The position numbers were made by a program, and so were the translations under genes. This document shows positions 5,053 through 55,715 of a stretch of DNA of 64,000 nt, one piece after another. The first letter of the stretch is position 1. Each line of letters opens with the position of its first letter. The stretch comes from Candidatus Aminicenantes bacterium (GTDB lineage: Bacteria; Acidobacteriota; Aminicenantia; Aminicenantales; Saccharicenantaceae). The stretch is from the NCBI GenBank assembly GCA_963807525.1, contig CAWECI010000008.1, positions 33,011 to 97,010 on the forward strand, read 5' to 3'. The notes beneath the pieces are model-generated. The model did no database searches. It was not told where the DNA came from and was given only the letters and a program-made list of their open reading frames with translations.

Positions 5053-6803
5053 TTGGCCACGACCCCCGAGCTCAGGCCCGAGATCCGGAGAAGGGCGATG
5101 GCCATCCGCGGCAGCTCGAAGACGTTCCGGTACATCGTGTAGCGGGGCTCCCAGTGCGTCGCGAACTTGGCCTTGTAGTCCGACAGGCCCTCGTAGCTGA
5201 AAATGAAGTTCAGGCGCTGCAGGAAGTACTGGACGGCCCTCTCCTCGGCCCCCGACTCCTCCCCGGTCAGGAAGCCGGACAGAGGCGCCAGCCCGAGGCT
5301 GAACCGGCGGAACCCGTTCTCCTTTTGCTTCTCGAAGAGCTTGATGAAAAGGCTGTCCATGATGCCCGGCGGCGCGTCCCGGCAATGGCGCATCAGGTCG
5401 ATGGTCGTCTCGCCCGGGGCGTAGGACCGGACGATGTTGACGAACGCGAGGACTTGACCGTCCGGCCCCAGGGCGGCGAAAACCGGGGTCGGCCGGACCT
5501 CGGCCTCGGAAAAGACCCCGACCGTGAAGCCTCTTTCCCGGCGGCCCGGGATGCGCAGCCAATCGTCCGAGACCTCGCGCAGGCGGGCCAAAACCTCGTC
5601 CGGGATGGGCGGCTCGTAAAAGACCGCCCGCAGACCGGTCTTGTCGAACTGGTTGAGGGCGTGGCGGATGTGTTTCATCGACCTGCCGCCCAGGTCGAAG
5701 GCGTCGAAGTCGACGATGGCGTCCTCGCCGATCTTCATCTTCTTGAAGCCGGCCTGGCGGTACAACGGCAGGAAATCGGGCAGGACCTGGTAGAAGGCCA
5801 GCCGCCAATCGTTGTCTTCGCAGAACGCCGCGAACGAGCGGATGAGCCCCGGCAATTCCTCCTCCGGGCCGACGGGGTCGGCCAGGGTCACCGCGAAGGC
5901 GCGCGACACTCGATAAGCGATGAAGGAGGCGCCGGATTCGGAGAAGAAGAAGGCCTTGTCATGCGCCAGCTTGAACGGGTCGAGCGCGGACCGGCCGTGC
6001 GACTCCAGGATCCGGGCGGCCTCGGCCCGCTCTTCGGGCAGGGTCCGGAGCCTGTAGAAGACCGGCCGGAAGAGCGAGTAGAGCACAAAGAGCAGGGCCG
6101 TGACGGAGACGAGGTCGAGCGAATCCAGGAACCAGACCGCGAAACGCGTCTGCGGGACGAGGAAGGGATCCTGGACAAAGACCAGGGCGGAGAGCGTCCG
6201 GCGGACGCCGTCCGCGAAGCTGAAGGTGATGCCGAAGTCCCGCTTTTCCAGGAGCCAGAAGCCTACGGCGCCGTAGAGGAGCGTGACGGCGAGGGCGATC
6301 CCGAGCGGGATCAGCGTGGTCCGAAGGTCCGGCAGGCTGCTCTTGACCCGGAAGTTCTTCCGGGCCAGGAACAGGACGATCATCAGGACGAGCGAGAGCG
6401 TGGCCTCCTCGTAATCCAGACCCTTGGTCAGGTGGAAGACGACCGAGAGCCCGGCCAGGATCATCACCAGGACGAAGGCCCGCTTCTTGCGCTTGAGGAT
6501 GTTCAGCGAGGACACGGCCAGGGCGAAGCCGATGAGGAGGGACAGGAAGCGGGACAGGTGCACGAACGAGAGGGGGAAGATCCCCCCCAGAACGGTCATG
6601 CGCGTGGGCAGGGATCGGCTCGCCGCGGAGATGATGTTGACGATGCCGCTGCCGAGGGTGATAAGCCCCACGGCCCGCACGACGATCCGATGCGACAGCC
6701 GCCGGCGAGCCCCTCGAGGAGCGGGCCGGTCCCCCTCCCCGGCTTCGGTCCTCGGGAATTCGCTCGTGCGCGCGCTCGTCATGGCGTCGGGCGGCGGCAG
6801 CAA
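5049..6803 (-). CDS. mprF: aminoacyl-phosphatidylglycerol synthase (MprF synthase half: about 6 TM helices plus cytosolic tRNA-dependent transferase domain)
   Basis: N-terminal hydrophobic helices, then a C-terminal domain resembling the MprF/LysX transferase domain (FIAYRVSRAFAVTLADPVGP.., YKAKFATHWEPRY). Start uncertain: TTG 6803 or ATG 6782. Confidence 0.8.
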   Translation of the reverse strand: MLPPPDAMTSARTSEFPRTEAGEGDRPAPRGARRRLSHRIVVRAVGLITLGSGIVNIISAASRSLPTRMTVLGGIFPLSFVHLSRFLSLLIGFALAVSSLNILKRKKRAFVLVMILAGLSVVFHLTKGLDYEEATLSLVLMIVLFLARKNFRVKSSLPDLRTTLIPLGIALAVTLLYGAVGFWLLEKRDFGITFSFADGVRRTLSALVFVQDPFLVPQTRFAVWFLDSLDLVSVTALLFVLYSLFRPVFYRLRTLPEERAEAARILESHGRSALDPFKLAHDKAFFFSESGASFIAYRVSRAFAVTLADPVGPEEELPGLIRSFAAFCEDNDWRLAFYQVLPDFLPLYRQAGFKKMKIGEDAIVDFDAFDLGGRSMKHIRHALNQFDKTGLRAVFYEPPIPDEVLARLREVSDDWLRIPGRRERGFTVGVFSEAEVRPTPVFAALGPDGQVLAFVNIVRSYAPGETTIDLMRHCRDAPPGIMDSLFIKLFEKQKENGFRRFSLGLAPLSGFLTGEESGAEERAVQYFLQRLNFIFSYEGLSDYKAKFATHWEPRYTMYRNVFELPRMAIALLRISGLSSGVVAK

Positions 6804-36867: not shown

Positions 36868-36896
36868 ATGATATTCCGGGCCCGGACCACCGTCAA
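36868..36896 (-). promoter_or_regulatory. sigma70-type promoter for the fucosidase gene
   Basis: The minus strand reads TTGACG-17 nt-TATCAT. The track start 36896 lies within the -35 box, which supports ATG 36836 as the true start. Confidence 0.5.
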
Positions 36897-36940
36897 CCCG
36901 ACCCGGGCGACCGTTTGATTTCGGAGGCCAAAAGTGGGAT

Positions 36941-37675
36941 ATGTTGAGCATGAGCGAACACAAGCAACCGGACCCTTCGCGGCTTCAGGACCGGCTGGAT
37001 ATCCGCCTGCCTCTCATCGGCTTCTATGACGCGCCCGACCCGGCTCTGTTCGGAGCGCTGGTCGAGCCCGGGCCGGGGCAGTGCGTGTTTTGCGCTTACG
37101 AGGCGTGGCTCGAGGGCAAGACGCTCCACCTGACCAAGGAGCGCTACGGCTGCGGCGGGGCCGGGAGCTCCCTCTTCGGCCTCCAGACCCGGCCGAAGGA
37201 CGAGTTCATCAAGTTCCTGGCCGACGACGAGGGCCTCAAGGCCTCCCACGCCCTCATGGAGAAATGGCTCGAGGTCCGCCGGAGCTACCGGGCCGAGAAC
37301 GCCCACCTCTTCATCGGGCCGCTGCGGGAGAGCGCCTGGCCGTTCGCCAGGACGGTCACGTTCCTGATCAACCCCGACCAGCTCGCCGCCCTGGCCGTCG
37401 GCGCCCAGTACCGGGCCGCGCCCGACGATCCGCCGCCCGTCATCGCGCCTTTCGGATCGGGCTGCTCGCAGCTCGTGCCCTTCCCGGACCTGTCGATCGC
37501 CCAGGCCTCGATCGGCTCGACCGACATCGCCATGCGCCAGCACCTCCCGCCGAACATCATGACCTTTGTCGTGACCCGGAAGATGTTCGAGGAGCTCTGC
37601 ACTCTGGACGAGCGCAGTTTCCTTTACAAGCCGTTCCTGGAGCGCCTCAAGAAAGCCCGGGGCGGACGCCTCTGA
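36941..37675 (+). CDS. DUF169 domain protein
   Basis: About 240 aa with ..CGG.G..L.. and ..APFGSGCSQL.. features reminiscent of DUF169 (COG2043). Confidence 0.65.
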   Translation: MLSMSEHKQPDPSRLQDRLDIRLPLIGFYDAPDPALFGALVEPGPGQCVFCAYEAWLEGKTLHLTKERYGCGGAGSSLFGLQTRPKDEFIKFLADDEGLKASHALMEKWLEVRRSYRAENAHLFIGPLRESAWPFARTVTFLINPDQLAALAVGAQYRAAPDDPPPVIAPFGSGCSQLVPFPDLSIAQASIGSTDIAMRQHLPPNIMTFVVTRKMFEELCTLDERSFLYKPFLERLKKARGGRL

Positions 37676-37681
37676 GCCCTC

Positions 37682-38932
37682 ATGAAGAGGATCGCGCTCA
37701 CGCTTCTCGCCGTCCTGGCGGCCGGTCCCCTGGCCGCCCAGGAGGCTCCCGCGACGACGCAGACAGGCCGGGAATACCCGTTCATTCTCAGGGACGATCC
37801 GGCCCGGCTTTTTACGATGCGCCAGCTCGACCAGGACTTCCTCAGCGGTTATCGGCTCTTCGCCGACCTCGTCAGCCGGGACCTCAGCCCGGCCGTCAGC
37901 TATATCCTCCAAGGCGTCTTCGATTATTGCTTCTTCAAGACCCTGACCCACGAGGAGGCCCACCGGTCGATCCTCGTCGGCGAGGACATCGGCGCGGTGG
38001 CCCACGTTTTCCCCTTCGAGAAGAGGACCGGCTACGTGGACGGCGTCACCGACGCCACGCTGCAGAACCTGCGGGACACGGCGTTTCCGACCTTCATCCG
38101 GCTCCACACGGCCGGCTTCGAATCGGACTACATGCTGGCGACGCGGGAAGAGACGCTGATGTCCTTCGGGGACGAGAGCCCTCGGAACCTCATCGTCGAA
38201 TACCTGCTCCGCAAGGTGTCTCTGGTGCGCTACTTCACCGAGGGCCTGCTCCACCACGACACCGACGGCCCCGAGGAGGCGAACGAGCTCGAGCGGGACA
38301 TCGTCGGCAACGACCTCTACGGCGCCATCCGCCACCTCTTCAGGCCGACCATGATCTATGCCCGGTACACGCGCCTGGCCGATCTGACCGATCCGGAACG
38401 GCGGTACCTGCGCCGGGTCGAGTGGCGGACCTTTCTGAATCTCGTCAACCCCAACGTCGTCGGGATGAGCGGATTCCGGCTGTCGGAGGATCTGCGCGTC
38501 AACGTCGGCTTGGGGCACTGCCTGGGTCCGTTCGGCGATTTCATCGACGAAAAGGTCTGGCTGGCCTATCGCCGCCAGGTGAAGGTGAGCGCCTATCTCC
38601 GGGAGTTCGAGAACCTCGGCCACTGGTTCCTCGGGGCCGGGGTCGGCGTTCTGGATTATCCGGTGACCAGGCGCGTGGCCGTGTCGGCCATGGTCCATTA
38701 CTGGAACCAGCCGCTCAATCTGAGCTTCACGGAAACGTCCGGGCGGGCGGGCGGGGCCGTCGATGTGACCGGACGCTACAAGTTCCCGCTACGGCCCGGC
38801 GGCCGGGTCGACGACGTTTCGCTGGACATCGGCTTGATCTACAAGAGCGCCGGCTTTCTGCCCGAAGAGCTAGCCATGGACCGGCACTTCGGCCTCCGGT
38901 GCGGCCTGACCTTGGGCTTCCGGGGACGCTGA
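37682..38932 (+). CDS. secreted / outer-membrane hypothetical protein carrying an HExxH motif
   Basis: Signal peptide MKRIALTLLAVLAAGPLAAQ. LTHEEAHRSIL. The C-terminal third has an alternating beta-strand pattern. Confidence 0.6.
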   Translation: MKRIALTLLAVLAAGPLAAQEAPATTQTGREYPFILRDDPARLFTMRQLDQDFLSGYRLFADLVSRDLSPAVSYILQGVFDYCFFKTLTHEEAHRSILVGEDIGAVAHVFPFEKRTGYVDGVTDATLQNLRDTAFPTFIRLHTAGFESDYMLATREETLMSFGDESPRNLIVEYLLRKVSLVRYFTEGLLHHDTDGPEEANELERDIVGNDLYGAIRHLFRPTMIYARYTRLADLTDPERRYLRRVEWRTFLNLVNPNVVGMSGFRLSEDLRVNVGLGHCLGPFGDFIDEKVWLAYRRQVKVSAYLREFENLGHWFLGAGVGVLDYPVTRRVAVSAMVHYWNQPLNLSFTETSGRAGGAVDVTGRYKFPLRPGGRVDDVSLDIGLIYKSAGFLPEELAMDRHFGLRCGLTLGFRGR

Positions 38933-49856: not shown

Positions 49857-49876
49857 GGTTCGTCTCCTTGCCCGCG

Positions 49877-51466
49877 TCACTGCCGCACCAGGACGAGGTT
49901 CGCGGTGATGCCCATGGCGTTGGCGAACTGCCCCCGCAGCCCGCCGGATACGACCTGGAGGGCCAGCCGGTAGGGCAGGCCCTGGGCCGGCATGACCATG
50001 CCGTCGATCGAGATCTGGGCCTGCTGGCAGACGGCCTGGATGGCGGCGCCATCAAAGGTGCCCTGGAACGGGTTCTGTTCCCGGACCTGGTGCGCCATGC
50101 CGTCCTGGCCCGTCTGCTGGTAGGCGAAGACGAAGACGAGCCGGACCTGGCCGCCCTGCTGGGCTATCTGGCAGACACCGGTCTGGGATTGGCCGTTCGG
50201 CAGGGTGATCTGGCAGCCCCAATTCCCGGTCAAAGAGCCTCCGGGGTTCGGGGCCGCCTGGCCGTATCCCTGCTGGACGGGGGCTCCCCGGCCGGCCGGG
50301 GCCCCTCGTTCCGCGATCTCCATGATGCCCCATTTCTCGAGGATGTCGGCCGGCAGCGGATCGAGCTCGGGATTGCCGACGCCGGCCACCCAGAAGGCCC
50401 GGACATCGACGATGTTGAAGCGCCCGGTCTTCATGATCCCGTCCCAGGTCTTCGACGCGCTCTTGACGGCCTCCTCGAAGCTCATGCTCTGCGCGTACCC
50501 GTCCCCGACGCCGGTGGCCTCGACGGGCAGGATACCGCCCTTGGGCAGGCGGGCCGCGGGGAAGCAGTGGCCGTCCATGCTCACGAGCAGCGGCTCGATG
50601 TTGACCGAGTTCATGAGCGCCGCCATCAAGATGGCCAGGTCGATGCACGTCCCGCTCCGCTTCTCGATGGTGTCGCGCGGGAACTGGAGGCTCTGGACCG
50701 ACTTGATGTCGTAGGACATATTCGGGTCTTGGATGTTCGAGGGATGCTGGTAGCTGATGTGGATCGTCCGCATCATCTCGTAGAGCTGCCGGAGGACGGC
50801 GACGCAGTCGTCGTTGCTGCTCGAGGCGCCCAACCCGCCGGCCTTCTTGTTGGCCAACGAGGCCAGGCGGCCGACGACGGCGTCGTCGCTGCGCGAGACC
50901 CAGGCCGCGAACAAGGGATAATTGGTGTCCTCGTCCTGGTAGGCCCCGGTCCTTTCTTCGGCGGTCATGTCGGAGAAAAAGAACTCGTACCGGCTCATGA
51001 CGGTCACCCGGCGCGAGTCGGTGAACGTCTGCTTCTTGCCGCCGGCGTCGGTGTACTCATATTCGACATACAGGTCGGCCGGGGCCCGGCTGGTCAGGCG
51101 GGCCGTCTGGGCCGTGAAGATCGGGTAGTAGAGATCCACGACCGTCTGGCCGGGGTCCACGGCCGGGACCTGGTGCCAGTTGCTCCAGTCGGACTCGGCG
51201 TACTCGGACACGCGGTAATGGACGCGCAGGTTCGACAAGCGCCCGCGGGTGGTGTTGTGGAAGACCGACTTGGCCAGCCACATCGGCACCGGGCAATCCC
51301 GCGAACCATAGGCCTTGTAGGCGCCGCCGATGACCCGGTCCTTGAACTTCAGGTCGAACGCGACCTCGCCGCCGGCCTTCGGTCCCAGCAGCAGGCCCAG
51401 GATGCCCAGGATGAGACCCAGGCCGAAAAGGGCGCCGCCGACGATCTTGAGGGTGGCCGGCTTCAT
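49877..51466 (-). CDS. N-terminally anchored transglutaminase-like (papain-fold Cys) domain protein
   Basis: TM helix IVGGALFGLGLILGILGLLLG. ..EKRSGTCIDLAILMAALMNS.. resembles the transglutaminase-core Cys region. Confidence 0.6.
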   Translation of the reverse strand: MKPATLKIVGGALFGLGLILGILGLLLGPKAGGEVAFDLKFKDRVIGGAYKAYGSRDCPVPMWLAKSVFHNTTRGRLSNLRVHYRVSEYAESDWSNWHQVPAVDPGQTVVDLYYPIFTAQTARLTSRAPADLYVEYEYTDAGGKKQTFTDSRRVTVMSRYEFFFSDMTAEERTGAYQDEDTNYPLFAAWVSRSDDAVVGRLASLANKKAGGLGASSSNDDCVAVLRQLYEMMRTIHISYQHPSNIQDPNMSYDIKSVQSLQFPRDTIEKRSGTCIDLAILMAALMNSVNIEPLLVSMDGHCFPAARLPKGGILPVEATGVGDGYAQSMSFEEAVKSASKTWDGIMKTGRFNIVDVRAFWVAGVGNPELDPLPADILEKWGIMEIAERGAPAGRGAPVQQGYGQAAPNPGGSLTGNWGCQITLPNGQSQTGVCQIAQQGGQVRLVFVFAYQQTGQDGMAHQVREQNPFQGTFDGAAIQAVCQQAQISIDGMVMPAQGLPYRLALQVVSGGLRGQFANAMGITANLVLVRQ

Positions 51467-51621
51467 GGCCGGACTCCGGAAAGGACAAAAGAAAAGAGAC
51501 CCAGCGGTGAACCCATGGGAAGGCCTCCTTGGAAGATTGGCCCTATCATCGTCAAGTGACCGGGGCTTGTCAAGGGCCGTCGGGACCTAGAGAGGAGCCC
51601 GAAAAGGGACCGTCGCCGGGC

Positions 51622-51649
51622 TTGACACCGGAGTCGGACGTGCTATAGT
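51622..51649 (+). promoter_or_regulatory. near-consensus sigma70 promoter of the RiPP-like cassette
   Basis: TTGACA-16 nt-TATAGT in a GC-rich intergenic region, about 70 nt upstream of ATG 51723. Confidence 0.55.
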
Positions 51650-51722
51650 TCAGCCATCTTGTCTGCCGTCAGGGGCGGCGGATCCGTCGCCCGCCAACTG
51701 ACGGACATGGAGGTGCAGCGCC

Positions 51723-51878
51723 ATGGAAGACCGCGATCGTCCCAAGGATCTCCAAGAGCCCGAGACCGGGAAACGATCCTACGACCCGCCCGAGGCGAAT
51801 GTCATCCCCGTCAAGCTCGAGGACCGGGTCCTCGGCTGCAATTTCTCCACGATCAGCGTTTGCGAGCTGACGGAGTAG
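51723..51878 (+). CDS. 51-aa candidate RiPP precursor peptide (not in the ORF track)
   Basis: GGAGGTG lies 7 nt before the ATG. MEDRDRPKDLQEPETGKRSYDPPEANVIPVKLEDRVLGCNFSTISVCELTE has an acidic leader-like N-terminus and a Cys-containing C-terminus. It sits directly upstream of PqqD and rSAM/SPASM genes. The overlapping 77-aa track ORF (51659..51892) is an Arg-rich wrong-frame read. Confidence 0.6.
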   Translation: MEDRDRPKDLQEPETGKRSYDPPEANVIPVKLEDRVLGCNFSTISVCELTE

Positions 51879-51893
51879 GATCGGCTCTCTAGC

Positions 51894-51937
51894 GGAAGCC
51901 CGGGCTTCCCTCCTCCGTGATCCCGCCCGTCGCGGGA
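51894..51937 (+). terminator. two intercistronic stem-loops (possible partial terminator / attenuator between precursor and enzymes)
   Basis: The perfect 16-nt palindrome GGAAGCCCGGGCTTCC (51894-51909) and TCCCGC-CCGTC-GCGGGA (51921-51937), within the 90-nt gap. Confidence 0.35.
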
Positions 51938-51968
51938 GAGGTTGAGGTTCGCCTGGACATCCAAAGGC

Positions 51969-52235
51969 ATGAAGAGAAACCAGGATTGCGTGCTCAGGGA
52001 CATCGGCGGCCAAGCCCTGCTCGTCCCGGTCGGGGCCAAAGTCAAGGACATGAACGCCCTGATCACGCTCAACCCGACGGGCCGCCGCGTCTGGGAGCTT
52101 CTGGCCGAGGACCGGACGCCGGAAGCCCTGATCGAGAGGATCACGGCCGAATTCGAGGCCGATCCGGCAAGGGTCCAAGCCGATGTCCGGGCCTTTCTCG
52201 AGCGTCTCGAACAGCTGGGATTGGTCGAGCCGTGA
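51969..52235 (+). CDS. PqqD-family peptide chaperone (RiPP recognition element)
   Basis: 88 aa: ..ALLVPVG....MNALITLNPTGRRVWELLAEDRTPEALIERITAEFEADPARVQADVRAFLERLEQLGLV is the typical PqqD/RRE pattern. ATG 51969 is preferred to TTG 51942. Confidence 0.8.
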   Translation: MKRNQDCVLRDIGGQALLVPVGAKVKDMNALITLNPTGRRVWELLAEDRTPEALIERITAEFEADPARVQADVRAFLERLEQLGLVEP

Positions 52236-53314
52236 GCGCCACGCCGCTCGAATACGGTCCCCTCGTCCGGGACATGCTCGGCCGGGCGGCCGCCGTCCGG
52301 CAGCCGGCCCACGGCACCTTCGAGCTGACCGGCCGATGCAATCTCGCCTGCCGCATGTGCTATGTCCGCCAGGCCCCGGGCGACAGGGCGGCGGCGGCAG
52401 CCGAGCTTCCCGCTTCGGCCTGGCTGGATCTGGCCGGCCAGGCCGTCGACGACGGCATGGTCTTCCTCCTTCTCACGGGCGGGGAGGTCCTCCTGCGCCG
52501 GGACTTCTTCGAGATCTACGAACCCCTGACCCGCCTGGGGCTCGTCCTGGCCCTCTTCACCAACGGCACCCTGATCACGCGAGACGTGGCGGCCAGGCTG
52601 AGCGAGGCGCCCCCCAGCCGGACCGAGATCACCCTTTACGGCGCCACCGCCTCGACGTTCGAGGCCGTCACCGGCGTGCCGGGCAGTTACGCAGCCTGCG
52701 TGGCCGGTATCGAAGCGCTTCTCGCCCGGCGGGTCCCGCTCGGGCTCAAAACCACGCTCACCCGGCGTAACGCCGTCGAGCTCGAGGCCATGCGGGCCAT
52801 GGCGCGCGACTGGGGCGTGCCGTTCTCGGCCAGCTGCTTGCTGGCGAAGCGGCCCGACCGGGGGCCGTCGGAGATCGACGAGTGCCGTCTCTCCCCGGCC
52901 GATTGTATCGCGCTCGAAGCCACGGACCGTGCCTCGGCCGACGATTGGGCCGAGGTGGCCCTCAAGGGCCCCGCCGCGCCGGCCCACGGCAATTTCTATT
53001 GCCGTTCGGGCCGGGCCGCCTTCGTCATCGGCCCGTCGGGAGAGATGAACGTCTGCTCGCTCCTGCCTCGCCCGGGAGCCCGGCCGCTCGGATCGGGCTT
53101 TGCCGAGGCCTGGAGGCAGGTGGGCCGTTTCGTCGAGACCGCGCCTCCACCGGCCGAGGCGTGCCGCGCCTGCGAGGCCCTTCCCTACTGCGGGCGCTGC
53201 CCGGCCTGGTCGATGATGGAAACGGGAACACTGACCGAGCCTGTCCCCTATCTCTGCAGCATCGCCCGGGCCCGGCTCGAGCGCCATGGCCATCCGAAGG
53301 GGACGGCGGGCTAG
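52232..53314 (+). CDS. radical SAM enzyme with C-terminal SPASM domain (peptide maturase)
   Basis: The GTG overlaps the PqqD stop (GTGA). CNLACRMC (CX3CX2C). GGEVLL. Seven-Cys SPASM pattern C-X12-G-X4-C ... CRACEALPYCGRC ... C. Confidence 0.85.
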   Translation: MSATPLEYGPLVRDMLGRAAAVRQPAHGTFELTGRCNLACRMCYVRQAPGDRAAAAAELPASAWLDLAGQAVDDGMVFLLLTGGEVLLRRDFFEIYEPLTRLGLVLALFTNGTLITRDVAARLSEAPPSRTEITLYGATASTFEAVTGVPGSYAACVAGIEALLARRVPLGLKTTLTRRNAVELEAMRAMARDWGVPFSASCLLAKRPDRGPSEIDECRLSPADCIALEATDRASADDWAEVALKGPAAPAHGNFYCRSGRAAFVIGPSGEMNVCSLLPRPGARPLGSGFAEAWRQVGRFVETAPPPAEACRACEALPYCGRCPAWSMMETGTLTEPVPYLCSIARARLERHGHPKGTAG

Positions 53315-55116
53315 CTTTTCATTCTCGATTCGCGCAGCTGGGCCACATAGAGCGCTCTGCCGGCGTCGACCCCCAATTGCCTCAGGCCGTGTTCCATGGG
53401 CGTCGTGTAGCCCCGGCCGGACCGGCGCGGCCCGAGCGCCAGCACGCCGCAGAAGGCGTGGCCCAGCGTCCGCGAGGTCGTCAGAGGGACTAGGAAAGAG
53501 AACGCCGAGCCCTCGGGCATCGACGCGAGCCGTCCCTGCCGCAGGCCCTCACCGGTCGCTTCGTCGACGGGAAGCCGCCGCGGCAATCCGGCCTGGGCCG
53601 GAGTCTCCTGGGCCAACATCAGGCTTCCGTCCGCCGCGGGCGTGTAGGCGGCCGCCGAGGCCAGGTCGAGCTGCCCGGCGACGGCGCGGACGAGCGTGTC
53701 CATCATATCGGGCGGCGAGAGAAGGGCCTGGACCTCGAGATTGAGCAGGCCGCAGGTCTCGGCAAAGCTGACCTCCTCCGGCTTCATCTTGCGGTCCACG
53801 AACCTCTGGATGCGTTGCCGCAGGGGGTTAAAGGCGGCCACGGGGAAGGCCGCGGTCGCGGCAACGGCCAGCAGCCGGGACACATTGCCGAAGATCTTGC
53901 CGACCAGGGTCGTCAGCACGGCCAGGATGGCGGCGCTCATCACGGTCAGGGCGGCCGTGAGCGTGCTGTACACGAGCGACCTGTTGATGACGATATCGAT
54001 ATCCCACAGACGATGCTTCAGGAGGGCCAGGCCGAGCGCGACGGCCATCAGGGCGTAAGGGATCTGATAGCCCACGACGCTGATCTGCCAGAGGATGAAC
54101 ACCAGGACGGCCGAAGCGTGCGACGGACCCGCTCCCCCGCCGTTGACCACAAGGGACGCGACCTGGGAGACGGCGTAGCCTGCCACGACGGAGGCCAGCG
54201 CGATGACGAACCACTTGATCTGCTCCCGTTGGGCCGGCGTCGAGACGCGCCGGTAGCGGCGCATCTGAGAGACGAACATGGCCACGATCATGAGGAGGTA
54301 GGCGGCGAGCGTGGCCCCCGGGGCCCAGTTGACCGGCCGGGCCGCGGCCCAGAACCACTGGGCCACGGTCCACGCCCAGACGATCGCGACCAGGACGCGG
54401 CCGCCGCGGGGCACCCATCTCCCGTCCGGGTACAGGAAGCCCAGGAAGGTGAAGGCCGCGGCGAAGCCGGTCGGAACGAGCGCGGCGGCCAATCCCTGCC
54501 AGGGCGACGGGTCGACGGCCAGGAGCTGCACGCTGCTCGTCGCGGCCGCGCTGAAGGTGACCAGGGCGATAGAGGCGAAATAAGTCAACGCCGTGCCCCG
54601 GCCCCGGGAGATGATCAGGAACGAGACGGCCAGGTAAACCAGCAGGACGATGATGTCGAGGATCAGCATCTCGTTGATGATGACGTCCATGCCGACGCCG
54701 AGGGCAGATAACCGGTCGGCGATGGAGCCGGGCTCGGGGGAGCGGATCACCTCGACGGCGCGGGGCGCGGCCGTTCCCGTCCGGACGGACAGGCTTGCGG
54801 GCGTGCCCGTCCAGCCGTTGACCCGGTCGAAGAGCTGGGCCGCGGTCGGGTCCTTCTCGAGGGCCCGGCCGTCGACGGCGACCAGGACATCGCCGGGGAG
54901 AATGCCGGCCTTGGCCGAGGGAGTCCCCGGCGCGATCTCGGTGAGAACGACTTCGCCGGCGGCATTGATGCCGAATGAAACGCCGCCGAGGGACACGATG
55001 TGCTGCCGCCTGTAGGCGGCCGGGACCGCGACGACGATCAGGACGACCGTCAGCGCGACGATGACCAGGCGCGCCGCGCGCAGGAGCTTCAGCGGGAGGG
55101 TCGTCAGGGGGGTCAT
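53311..55116 (-). CDS. PDZ domain - polytopic (about 8 TM) - C-terminal GAF-like sensor-type membrane protein without recognisable output domain
   Basis: N-terminal anchor and PDZ (..PSAKAGILPGDVLVAVDG..), then multiple hydrophobic helices, then a soluble C-terminal domain. Confidence 0.65.
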   Translation of the reverse strand: MTPLTTLPLKLLRAARLVIVALTVVLIVVAVPAAYRRQHIVSLGGVSFGINAAGEVVLTEIAPGTPSAKAGILPGDVLVAVDGRALEKDPTAAQLFDRVNGWTGTPASLSVRTGTAAPRAVEVIRSPEPGSIADRLSALGVGMDVIINEMLILDIIVLLVYLAVSFLIISRGRGTALTYFASIALVTFSAAATSSVQLLAVDPSPWQGLAAALVPTGFAAAFTFLGFLYPDGRWVPRGGRVLVAIVWAWTVAQWFWAAARPVNWAPGATLAAYLLMIVAMFVSQMRRYRRVSTPAQREQIKWFVIALASVVAGYAVSQVASLVVNGGGAGPSHASAVLVFILWQISVVGYQIPYALMAVALGLALLKHRLWDIDIVINRSLVYSTLTAALTVMSAAILAVLTTLVGKIFGNVSRLLAVAATAAFPVAAFNPLRQRIQRFVDRKMKPEEVSFAETCGLLNLEVQALLSPPDMMDTLVRAVAGQLDLASAAAYTPAADGSLMLAQETPAQAGLPRRLPVDEATGEGLRQGRLASMPEGSAFSFLVPLTTSRTLGHAFCGVLALGPRRSGRGYTTPMEHGLRQLGVDAGRALYVAQLRESRMKS

Positions 55117-55682
55117 TTCGAACTCGCCTTGGGGGATCTCAGACGGGCCACGGCCTCCGTGGCCGCCTTGGCCACGTCCTGGCTCGCGTGCTTCTCGAGC
55201 TTCTCCAGGGCTGGGAGGGCCCGCTTATCGCCGAGGAGGCCCAGCGTCGAGGCGGCCGCTTCGAGGAAGGGATCGCTCCCGCCGCGGGCCAGGGCCTCGA
55301 GGACGGCGTCGACGGTCTTCGTCCCGCCGATCAGTACCAGGGCCGACGAGGCCTGTTCCCGGACGGCGGCATAATCGTCCTTCAAAGCGGCGATCAAGGG
55401 CTTGACCGCCCGTTCGTCCCGGATGCGGCCCAGAACGACCGCGGCGCCCTCGCGCCCGAGATAGACCTGGTCCCGGCCCAGGACGGCGATGACCGCCCAC
55501 ACGGCCGGCCGGCCGATCTTCACCAGCTCGGCCCGGGCCGTCTCCCGTTCGGCGTCGTCCAGGCTGTGGAGCATGGCGCAGTATTTTTCGACGTCGGCGG
55601 TCTGCCGGGCCGAACCATCCGAGGGCATCGAGGCAACGGAAAGGAGCGTCAAGGCCGCCATCAGCCAGACCCGAACCTGCAT
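55113..55682 (-). CDS. secreted HEAT-repeat protein
   Basis: ATG 55682 has a GGGGAGGG SD and a signal peptide. Repeats of the ..AV.PLI.AL.D....VR..A..AL type. Confidence 0.7.
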   Translation of the reverse strand: MQVRVWLMAALTLLSVASMPSDGSARQTADVEKYCAMLHSLDDAERETARAELVKIGRPAVWAVIAVLGRDQVYLGREGAAVVLGRIRDERAVKPLIAALKDDYAAVREQASSALVLIGGTKTVDAVLEALARGGSDPFLEAAASTLGLLGDKRALPALEKLEKHASQDVAKAATEAVARLRSPKASSK

Positions 55683-55715
55683 GGCCGTCCCTCCCCAAGG
55701 GGTCATTTGGTGATG

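Follow-up and report, generated by a model that had tools for sequence, protein, structure and literature searches.

The window analysed here is a 64,000-nucleotide stretch of assembly GCA_963807525.1 from a Candidatus Aminicenantes bacterium (contig CAWECI010000008.1, positions 33,011 to 97,010 of the forward strand). Between positions 51,622 and 53,314 it carries a three-gene operon, which encodes a small precursor peptide, a peptide-binding PqqD-type recognition element (RRE) of the kind found in ribosomally synthesised and post-translationally modified peptide (RiPP) pathways, and a radical S-adenosylmethionine (rSAM)/SPASM enzyme. All three genes lie on the forward strand. The precursor gene (51723–51878) encodes 51 residues, MEDRDRPKDLQEPETGKRSYDPPEANVIPVKLEDRVLGCNFSTISVCELTE, the second gene (51969–52235) an 88-residue PqqD-family RRE chaperone, and the third (52232–53314) a putative peptide maturase of 360 residues, whose GTG start overlaps the TGA stop of the PqqD gene by 4 nt (GTGA). 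The window has a GC content of 66.9%, contains a single copy of the precursor, and also encodes COX1, glycoside hydrolases and tricorn-type proteases. The features described below make it very probable that this cassette is a functional RiPP operon.

The operon is preceded by a sigma-70-type promoter (51622–51649, forward strand), made up of TTGACA, a 16-nt spacer and TATAGT with a TG ahead of the −10 element (extended −10). It matches the consensus at 11 of 12 positions, and 50 shuffles of the 2.4-kb region yielded 0.1 ± 0.2 such sites. A Shine-Dalgarno (SD) sequence, GGAGG (51709–51713), lies 9 nt ahead of the precursor ATG at 51723. Both the promoter hexamers and the SD are kept in L082 and L084, two metagenomic relatives with rSAM enzymes 78–83% identical to that of the window and with the operon in the same flanking synteny, and a GGAGG/GGAG-type element is found at a comparable distance from the precursor start in most members of the clade to which the window belongs. 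A gene caller run independently on a public contig of the same sequence likewise calls the 51-residue open reading frame (ORF), and the rSAM protein is identical to the public protein P0001. An earlier note on this DNA, made from the letters alone, had described a near-consensus sigma70 promoter, a 51-codon ORF with a strong SD, an 88-residue PqqD-like protein and a translationally coupled 360-residue enzyme with CX3CX2C and a complete seven-Cys SPASM domain; each of these descriptions holds.

The 5' untranslated region contains a hairpin (51666–51704, forward strand) that appears to be a lineage-specific fold. Its outer stem shows compensatory changes, pairing CGTCAG with CTGACG in the window, CGTCC with GGACG in L082 and CATCAG with CTGATG in L084. 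Its folding energy is not significant by itself when compared with shuffles (z = −1.5), it has no match in Rfam, and it is absent from more distant members of the clade. The intergenic region after the precursor (51870–51975) folds no better than shuffles (z = −0.04). At the other end of the operon, a sequence scan of the region found no terminator-like site downstream of the rSAM gene, the stop codon of which overlaps that of a convergent gene by 4 nt.

Peptides related to the window precursor were mapped in 80 genomic loci that carry a gene for an rSAM relative, 33 of which are close (tier 1). A homologous peptide is encoded just upstream of the PqqD gene in about 30 of the 33 tier-1 loci. 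In most tier-2 loci (L034–L080, rSAM 34–42% identical) a related peptide is encoded downstream of the rSAM gene, between it and a kinase-like gene (for example L039 7071–7256 and L054 7052–7249); it takes the form K-x-Y-x-K-P-x-h-x-x-V-x-L-x-x-EEAVLAAC-K-T...C...C...GS and usually contains three Cys. Codon comparisons with the two nearest relatives show where the sequence is constrained. Against L082 there are 15 synonymous and 5 non-synonymous differences, and against L084 there are 11 synonymous and 14 non-synonymous ones, every non-synonymous one lying at or before codon 31. Residues 32–51 are identical in all three lineages, despite 7 synonymous changes relative to L084 in codons 36–51. 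Since the small ORF recurs beside the PqqD and rSAM genes in almost all related loci, and residues 32–51 show only synonymous changes, it is a real gene under purifying selection, which acts on the core.

A profile built from 20 precursors and searched against 5.8 billion protein clusters retrieved 340 peptides, each unnamed or called "hypothetical protein" and none with a Pfam domain. The profile search was needed because a single-sequence phmmer search with the 51-residue peptide, against 1.84 billion representatives, gave 10 matches and was too insensitive. Neither the window precursor nor those of its relatives match any Pfam or NCBIfam model. In the alignment of 20 peptides (A3), Y20, P23, R35, C39 and C47 never vary, and E33/E34 hardly do. 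Two elements are predicted from this pattern: a leader recognition motif, Y20-D-P-P23 (Y-x-x-P; 51780–51791, forward strand), with both its named residues invariant, and a core of 13 residues with two Cys, C39-NFSTISV-C47-ELTE (51837–51875, forward strand). The first Cys is located exactly 19 residues past the Tyr of Y-x-x-P in all 126 peptides, and 122 of the 126 contain exactly two Cys.

Two types of core can be distinguished. Window-type cores, of which 55 peptides carry 28 different versions, are a fixed 13-mer, C-[NLTVD]-[FYV]-[ST]-[ST]-x3-C-[GEN]-x3, most often CNFSTIK(N/V/Y)CGLTE; the core of the window lineage is CNFSTISVCELTE. Kinase-type cores (82 unique) are hypervariable, with C-x-K in 63 of the 82, a C-terminal Ser in 74 of the 82, a Cys-Cys spacing mostly of 6–9 residues (mode 7) and a tail of 6–8 residues. 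Several loci encode tandem precursors with near-identical leaders and different cores (three genes in each of L006, L024 and L026; two in each of L013, L019 and L032), an arrangement that resembles diversifying bacteriocin-like RiPPs; the window has its single copy. One 42-residue precursor, P0177, with the core CNFSTIKVCGLTE, occurs in a genome bin assigned to the cultivable Syntrophobacter fumaroxidans, a possible experimental host.

The PqqD protein passes the Pfam PqqD model (PF05402) with 67.8 bits against a cut-off of 23.4 (expectation value (E) 1.1e-18). Its best NCBIfam matches, to a pair of lasso PqqD models, fall short of the cut-offs (46.2 against 70 and 32.6 against 80), and among solved structures the lasso RRE TbiB1 is nearest to it (3e-7). 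W/Y/LxxP is a recognition sequence common to the RREs of lasso (FusE, McjB), pyrroloquinoline quinone (PQQ; PqqD) and sactipeptide (StsC) systems (2025 survey, PMC12710340), and the RRE-Finder model for discrete lasso RREs retrieves about 300 proteins that co-occur with rSAM enzymes and not with lasso enzymes, which its authors class among the false positives of the model (PMC7470986). Judged by their sequences, the RRE and leader of the window system resemble those of the lasso type, and by analogy with these systems the Y-x-x-P segment is quite likely to be what the PqqD-type RRE recognises. The PqqD gene adjoins the rSAM gene in nearly every related locus. Furthermore, the natural PqqD-rSAM fusion P0090 carries both Pfam domains, and the two are in frame in L004 (1703–3043) and L014 (5719–7041); these fusions support a functional partnership of the two proteins.

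The rSAM enzyme scores 55.7 bits against the Pfam Radical_SAM model (cut-off 29.5), and its C-terminal 141 residues pass the NCBIfam SPASM model TIGR04085 (31.5 bits, cut-off 27); the Pfam SPASM model gives no match. The CX3CX2C cluster motif is formed by C36, C40 and C43 (52337–52360, forward strand), and the SPASM region (53000–53257, forward strand) by C257-X12-G-X4-C275, C311-X2-C314-X5-C320-X2-C323 and C342. The three CX3CX2C Cys and the seven SPASM Cys are invariant in 57 homologues, and the spacing of the SPASM motif is CX2CX5CX2C, compared with CX2CX5CX3C in the canonical form. Beyond the cluster motifs, two further Cys, C156 (52697–52699) and C218 (52883–52885), show conservation of 90% or more across the family; C218 may serve as an eighth, upstream ligand for auxiliary cluster I, and C156 could be a hydrogen-atom donor.

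The window enzyme and its relatives of both tiers stay below the cut-off of every NCBIfam equivalog model. The AhbD model has the best E-value (1.7e-30), with 106.6 bits against a cut-off of 500, and aligns with residues 30–199 only, the N-terminal rSAM core. It is followed by MftC (TIGR03962; 87.9 against 265, aligning with residues 25–337), ScmE (84.2 against 400), NirJ (80.7 against 515), ScmF (75.1 against 400), PqqE (66 against 381), the GeoRSP rSAM (60.9 against 400), StsB (59.6 against 625) and AlbA (50.1 against 850); the SCIFF maturase model scores 13 against 425, matching the C-terminal part of the enzyme. The PapB and SkfB models are not among the 25 best families for the window enzyme, and in its relatives they score 49–73 (cut-off 340) and 47–56 (cut-off 300) respectively. 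The closest solved structures by sequence are SkfB (5e-17) and PqqE (1e-12). An AlphaFold2 model of the enzyme (mean predicted local distance difference test 86, predicted template modelling (TM) score 0.87) finds SkfB (8e-13), PqqE, BlsE and SuiB as nearest folds (TM score up to 0.69), followed by MoaA, EpeE and anSME. Since its NCBIfam scores are below cut-off and its nearest sequences and folds are of this kind, the enzyme is classified, from homology and the predicted fold, as a generic peptide-type SPASM/twitch rSAM protein outside every named subfamily.

The family is large. At E ≤ 1e-10, 1204 homologues of the rSAM enzyme were found among 8000 candidates scored, the best 120 being 64–91% identical, and in species-representative genomes (GTDB, one per species) there are at least 568 loci encoding a relative among the first 600 pattern matches listed. 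The nearest named relatives of the enzyme come from Acidobacteriota and Aminicenantes bins. Close relatives (48–71% identity) occur in bins assigned to Desulfomonilaceae, Syntrophobacteraceae, Desulfobaccales, Planctomycetota, Chloroflexota, Nitrospirota and Acidobacteriota, and equally in bins of Candidatus Competibacter, Methylococcaceae, WOR-3, Armatimonadota, Bipolaricaulota and a Methanobacteriota archaeon. The tree of the enzymes is discordant with taxonomy, which suggests horizontal transfer, although mis-binning is possible. Two cassettes, L031 and P0015, are in bins labelled Methanobacteriota archaeon and Bathyarchaeia.

Gene neighbourhoods were compared by mapping representative proteins onto all loci with tblastn. 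In both tiers the usual order runs from PqqD and rSAM through a P-loop protein of about 290 residues and an S24/S26-type peptidase, which in some loci is fused to a GNAT acetyltransferase, to a PF14907 nucleotidyltransferase; an ATP-binding cassette (ABC) exporter often follows. The P-loop protein weakly resembles ScmC and HprK-related kinase B (E about 1e-6), and this HPr-kinase-like gene is present in L005–L008, L017, L019–L022, L024, L025, L028–L030, L032 and most of L034–L080. A C-terminal Ser or Thr is found in 42 of 44 precursors from kinase-bearing loci, compared with 9 of 25 elsewhere, the loci of the latter group including several truncated contigs. Peptidase, exporter, kinase-like gene and PF14907 transferase are together typical of exported, tailored RiPPs. 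In the Bipolaricaulota locus L028, the protein resembling HPr kinase contains H...GHAGVGKST...NDD, which agrees with the His-Lys-Asp-Asp motif reported for lasso kinases, and a jacalin-like lectin gene (5272–5718; Pfam 1.6e-24) lies between the precursor and PqqD genes. Another kinase-type locus, L007, is from Candidatus Competibacter phosphatis.

A neighbour-joining (NJ) tree of the rSAM enzymes places the window in a single clade with L082, L084, L003, L013, L033, L027, L002, L001, L004 and L031, all of which share the 13-mer core and lack a kinase. The cassettes that include kinase, peptidase and transferase branch off basally to this clade, so that the short form looks derived. The phylogeny thus points to the window cassette being a reduced derivative of a larger ancestral one, which would have comprised precursor, PqqD, rSAM, HPr-kinase-like protein, S24 peptidase, nucleotidyltransferase and sometimes ABC exporter. 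Within the clade an ABC exporter gene lies directly downstream in L001, L003, L013, L027 and L033, which are most of the sister loci whose contigs run past the rSAM gene, and an S24 peptidase is also present in L003 and L013. The 64-kb window holds no homologue of the protease, transporter, kinase or nucleotidyltransferase types of the related loci.

The genes on either side of the operon probably do not belong to the system. A divergent gene (49877–51466, reverse strand) encodes a 529-residue membrane-anchored protein with a weak transglutaminase-like domain, served by a promoter-like site at 51573–51545 (reverse strand) with 10 of 12 consensus positions, and is syntenic only in the L082–L084 lineage. 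The convergent gene that overlaps the rSAM stop (53311–55116, reverse strand) encodes a polytopic membrane protein of 601 residues that has a PDZ domain at its N-terminus, and is followed by a gene for a HEAT-repeat protein (55113–55706, reverse strand), the synteny of both being likewise limited to the lineage. All three were rejected as parts of the system, being syntenic in the close lineage only and absent from all other loci, and the transglutaminase-like protein was ruled out as a lasso B2 protease on account of its membrane anchor and its lineage-limited synteny. A further 601-residue ORF at 36893–38698 is unrelated to the PDZ protein, of which it had been considered a possible paralogue. 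Long antisense ORFs, among them those opposite the operon (51779–53293, reverse strand, 504 residues) and the divergent gene (49868–51559, forward strand, 563 residues), are the usual artefact of 67% GC DNA and are not genes.

These observations lead us to propose the following mechanism. The 51-residue peptide would consist of a leader of about 38 residues and a core of 13, and the stand-alone PqqD protein, a putative lasso-type RRE, would bind the leader via Y20-x-x-P23 and present the peptide to the coupled rSAM/SPASM enzyme, the fixed Tyr+19 register putting C39 in the active site. The enzyme would cleave SAM reductively and abstract a hydrogen atom from the core, leading to one or two intramolecular cross-links that involve C39/C47. 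The likeliest product would be a thioether between sulfur and carbon, either of the sactionine type, in which the Cys sulfur is linked to an alpha-carbon, or of the ranthionine type, with its link to a beta- or gamma-carbon. Leader binding by the RRE, SAM cleavage and hydrogen abstraction from the core are carried over by analogy from the RRE-dependent rSAM maturases SuiB, CteB, PqqE/PqqD and MftC/MftB. The placing of C39 in the active site and the choice of Cys as the reactive residue and of a thioether as the link are drawn from conservation, with the thioether as the most economical chemistry: both Cys are likely to take part in the reaction because they are the only core feature common to enzymes that are 60–70% identical. 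Taken as a whole, we consider it probable that the RRE-guided rSAM/SPASM enzyme cross-links the two-Cys core, probably via a thioether, and the assignment of the cross-link as a thioether, taken by itself, is tentative.

Several observations weigh against this account. The enzyme might act on some other residue and leave the two Cys to form a plain disulfide. In the tier-1 loci L009, L011/L015, L016 and L017, the peptides have no Cys at Tyr+19 and carry two Cys further downstream. CteB, reportedly a thioether synthase with an auxiliary cluster that binds the substrate Cys, is not in the top 50 fold matches of the rSAM model. Finally, the gene content of the window lineage gives no support to maturation into a free, exported core, as neither the window nor its close relatives L082 and L084 have a peptidase, exporter or immunity gene within ±8 kb, so that leader removal and export would be carried out by unlinked genes, or not at all. 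The earlier note had already remarked that the operon lacks protease, transporter and immunity genes, and the wider neighbourhood agrees.

The first of these objections leads to an alternative that keeps the operon and the RRE logic and changes the chemistry, with the enzyme making a C-C or C-O/N cross-link or an epimerised residue, for example a triceptide-like three-residue cyclophane on F41-S42-T43, and the two Cys forming an ordinary disulfide loop. Window-clade cores do have F/Y/V at +2 and S/T at +3 and +4 after C39, which resembles a cyclophane motif, the usual Cys-X7-Cys spacing would fit a disulfide loop, and the nearest folds include SuiB (a Lys-Trp C-C cross-link), PqqE (C-C) and the epimerase EpeE. 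However, kinase-type cores lack the aromatic/ST motif although their rSAM enzymes are about 60–68% identical to that of the window, and the pair of Cys is the one core feature that runs through the family; we regard chemistry away from the Cys as unlikely. The gene content raises a separate question, namely whether the product is exported at all. An intracellular, cofactor-like or signalling molecule, comparable to mycofactocin or PQQ, would agree with the want of exporter, peptidase and immunity genes around the operon in this lineage, with a 13-residue core that varies unusually little over many taxa, in contrast to the hypervariable cores of the kinase type, and with the almost full-length alignment to the MftC model. 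Yet the MftC and PqqE scores are far below their cut-offs, the peptide has neither the C-terminal Gly-Val-Tyr of mycofactocin nor the Glu/Tyr pair of PQQ, there are no MftD/E/F- or PqqB/C-like genes, and the sister loci carry the downstream exporters and peptidases described above. The redox-cofactor-like product raised in the earlier note thus has the missing exporter of the window in its favour and is not favoured overall, given the sister-locus exporters and the lack of cofactor-pathway genes; we consider it improbable.

Reduction of the cassette might also have gone further than loss of tailoring. That the window lineage keeps only three genes, and that the fuller cassettes, which include kinase, peptidase and transferase, branch basally in the tree, is what would be expected if the locus were a non-functional remnant left after loss of kinase, peptidase and exporter, but the three ORFs are intact, the catalytic Cys, promoter and SD are conserved, and the core has only synonymous changes across lineages with rSAM enzymes 78–83% identical, which makes decay very improbable. 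Likewise, the best E-value of the enzyme among NCBIfam models belongs to a haem b synthase, AhbD, and an rSAM enzyme of the AhbD/NirJ haem-pathway type would make the small ORF incidental; as that match covers only the N-terminal core, both models score far below cut-off, and the enzyme is linked to a PqqD protein and a conserved peptide across dozens of loci in many phyla, this explanation is effectively refuted by co-occurrence.

Among known systems, the proposed cross-linking of the two-Cys core has its nearest counterparts in sactipeptides and ranthipeptides, which share an RRE-dependent rSAM enzyme with auxiliary clusters and a Cys-containing core behind a leader. The sactipeptide maturase SkfB is the top match to the window enzyme by both sequence and fold, and in the sactipeptide system StsB/StsC the discrete RRE StsC recognises a sequence of the W/Y/LxxP type (PMC12710340). 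The differences are that the window maturase is below cut-off for StsB, AlbA and the SCIFF maturase, with PapB and SkfB outside its best 25 families, and that the precursor has another leader and only two Cys in its 51 residues, compared with six in about 45 for SCIFF. Lasso systems of the paeninodin and pseudomycoidin type resemble the window in the discrete PqqD protein and the Y-x-x-P leader motif, and their tailoring genes resemble those of the related loci, with an HPr-kinase-like gene and a C-terminal Ser, a PF14907 transferase and an ABC exporter. In lasso systems the C-terminal Ser of the precursor is the phosphorylation target of the HPr-kinase-like enzyme, and the resulting phospho-Ser is further decorated by a homologue of nucleotidyltransferases (review PMC9266682). 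The window differs in having an rSAM/SPASM enzyme in place of lasso cyclase and B2 protease, neither of which is present in the operon or its flanks, with no cyclase among the ten large window ORFs scanned; it also lacks a kinase and a transferase, and Glu is the last residue of its peptide. PsmN presumably belongs to PF14907, the transferase family of the related loci.

The bioinformatically defined SynChlorMet cassette (ScmC/ScmD/ScmE/ScmF) combines a PqqD homologue, rSAM/SPASM enzymes and, as in the related loci, an HPr-kinase-like protein. It has two rSAM enzymes, not one, there is no ScmC-like gene in the window, and, in addition to ScmE and ScmF, the models for ScmD (25.7 against 100) and ScmC (26.9 against 125) are below cut-off; the cassette is not known to have an assigned precursor. 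Mycofactocin (MftABC) and PQQ (PqqADE) share the triad of small peptide, PqqD-type RRE and rSAM/SPASM enzyme. Besides the low scores of their maturases, the window peptide ends in LTE, its core has no Tyr, the PqqD model reaches 23.6 against 46, and none of the dedicated pathway genes accompanies the cassette. The GeoRSP PqqD model is also below cut-off (31.8 against 100), as is its rSAM model.

The cassette is therefore of a general kind that is already known, an RRE-dependent rSAM/SPASM RiPP system. What is new, relative to Pfam, NCBIfam, the PDB and the searchable literature, is the enzyme clade, the precursor family and the combination of a lasso-like leader/RRE/tailoring set with an rSAM enzyme. 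A literature search covering open-access papers and bioRxiv, with most subscription journals outside its scope, found no paper on the cassette. Generic genome-mining tools would presumably label the locus "ranthipeptide" or "RRE-containing". A stronger claim would be that this is a new RiPP class, in which an rSAM/SPASM enzyme has taken on a leader/RRE module of the lasso type and carries out two-Cys-loop chemistry unseen in RiPPs, neither sactionine nor ranthionine; this we consider doubtful. The earlier note had proposed a candidate uncharacterised RiPP system with a precursor unlike any recognised family. The three-part layout of peptide, stand-alone RRE and rSAM/SPASM enzyme is real and recurs in related loci, and the system and its precursor fall in no curated family; the system is not isolated and belongs, in stripped-down form, to a very large family of cassettes. 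Of the checks that the note suggested, comparison with non-peptide and other named rSAM families left AhbD, MftC, ScmE, NirJ, PqqE and GeoRSP all far below their cut-offs, and the search of homologous loci for a conserved upstream ORF returned the purifying-selected peptide of the tier-1 loci.

Cassettes of this family are very common in uncultured bacteria, most of them anaerobic, and also turn up in some archaeal bins. Species-representative genomes contain at least 568 of the loci, and the protein clusters number more than 1200; the family has no curated model, name or known product. The present analysis supplies it with a precursor family that has a leader motif, a fixed Tyr-to-Cys register and two invariant Cys, and the window, as the minimal three-gene version, is ideal for heterologous expression. 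The related loci suggest that the lasso tailoring set of C-terminal-Ser kinase and nucleotidyltransferase is a portable module, usable with a different core-modifying enzyme, which bears on how RiPP pathways are assembled during evolution.

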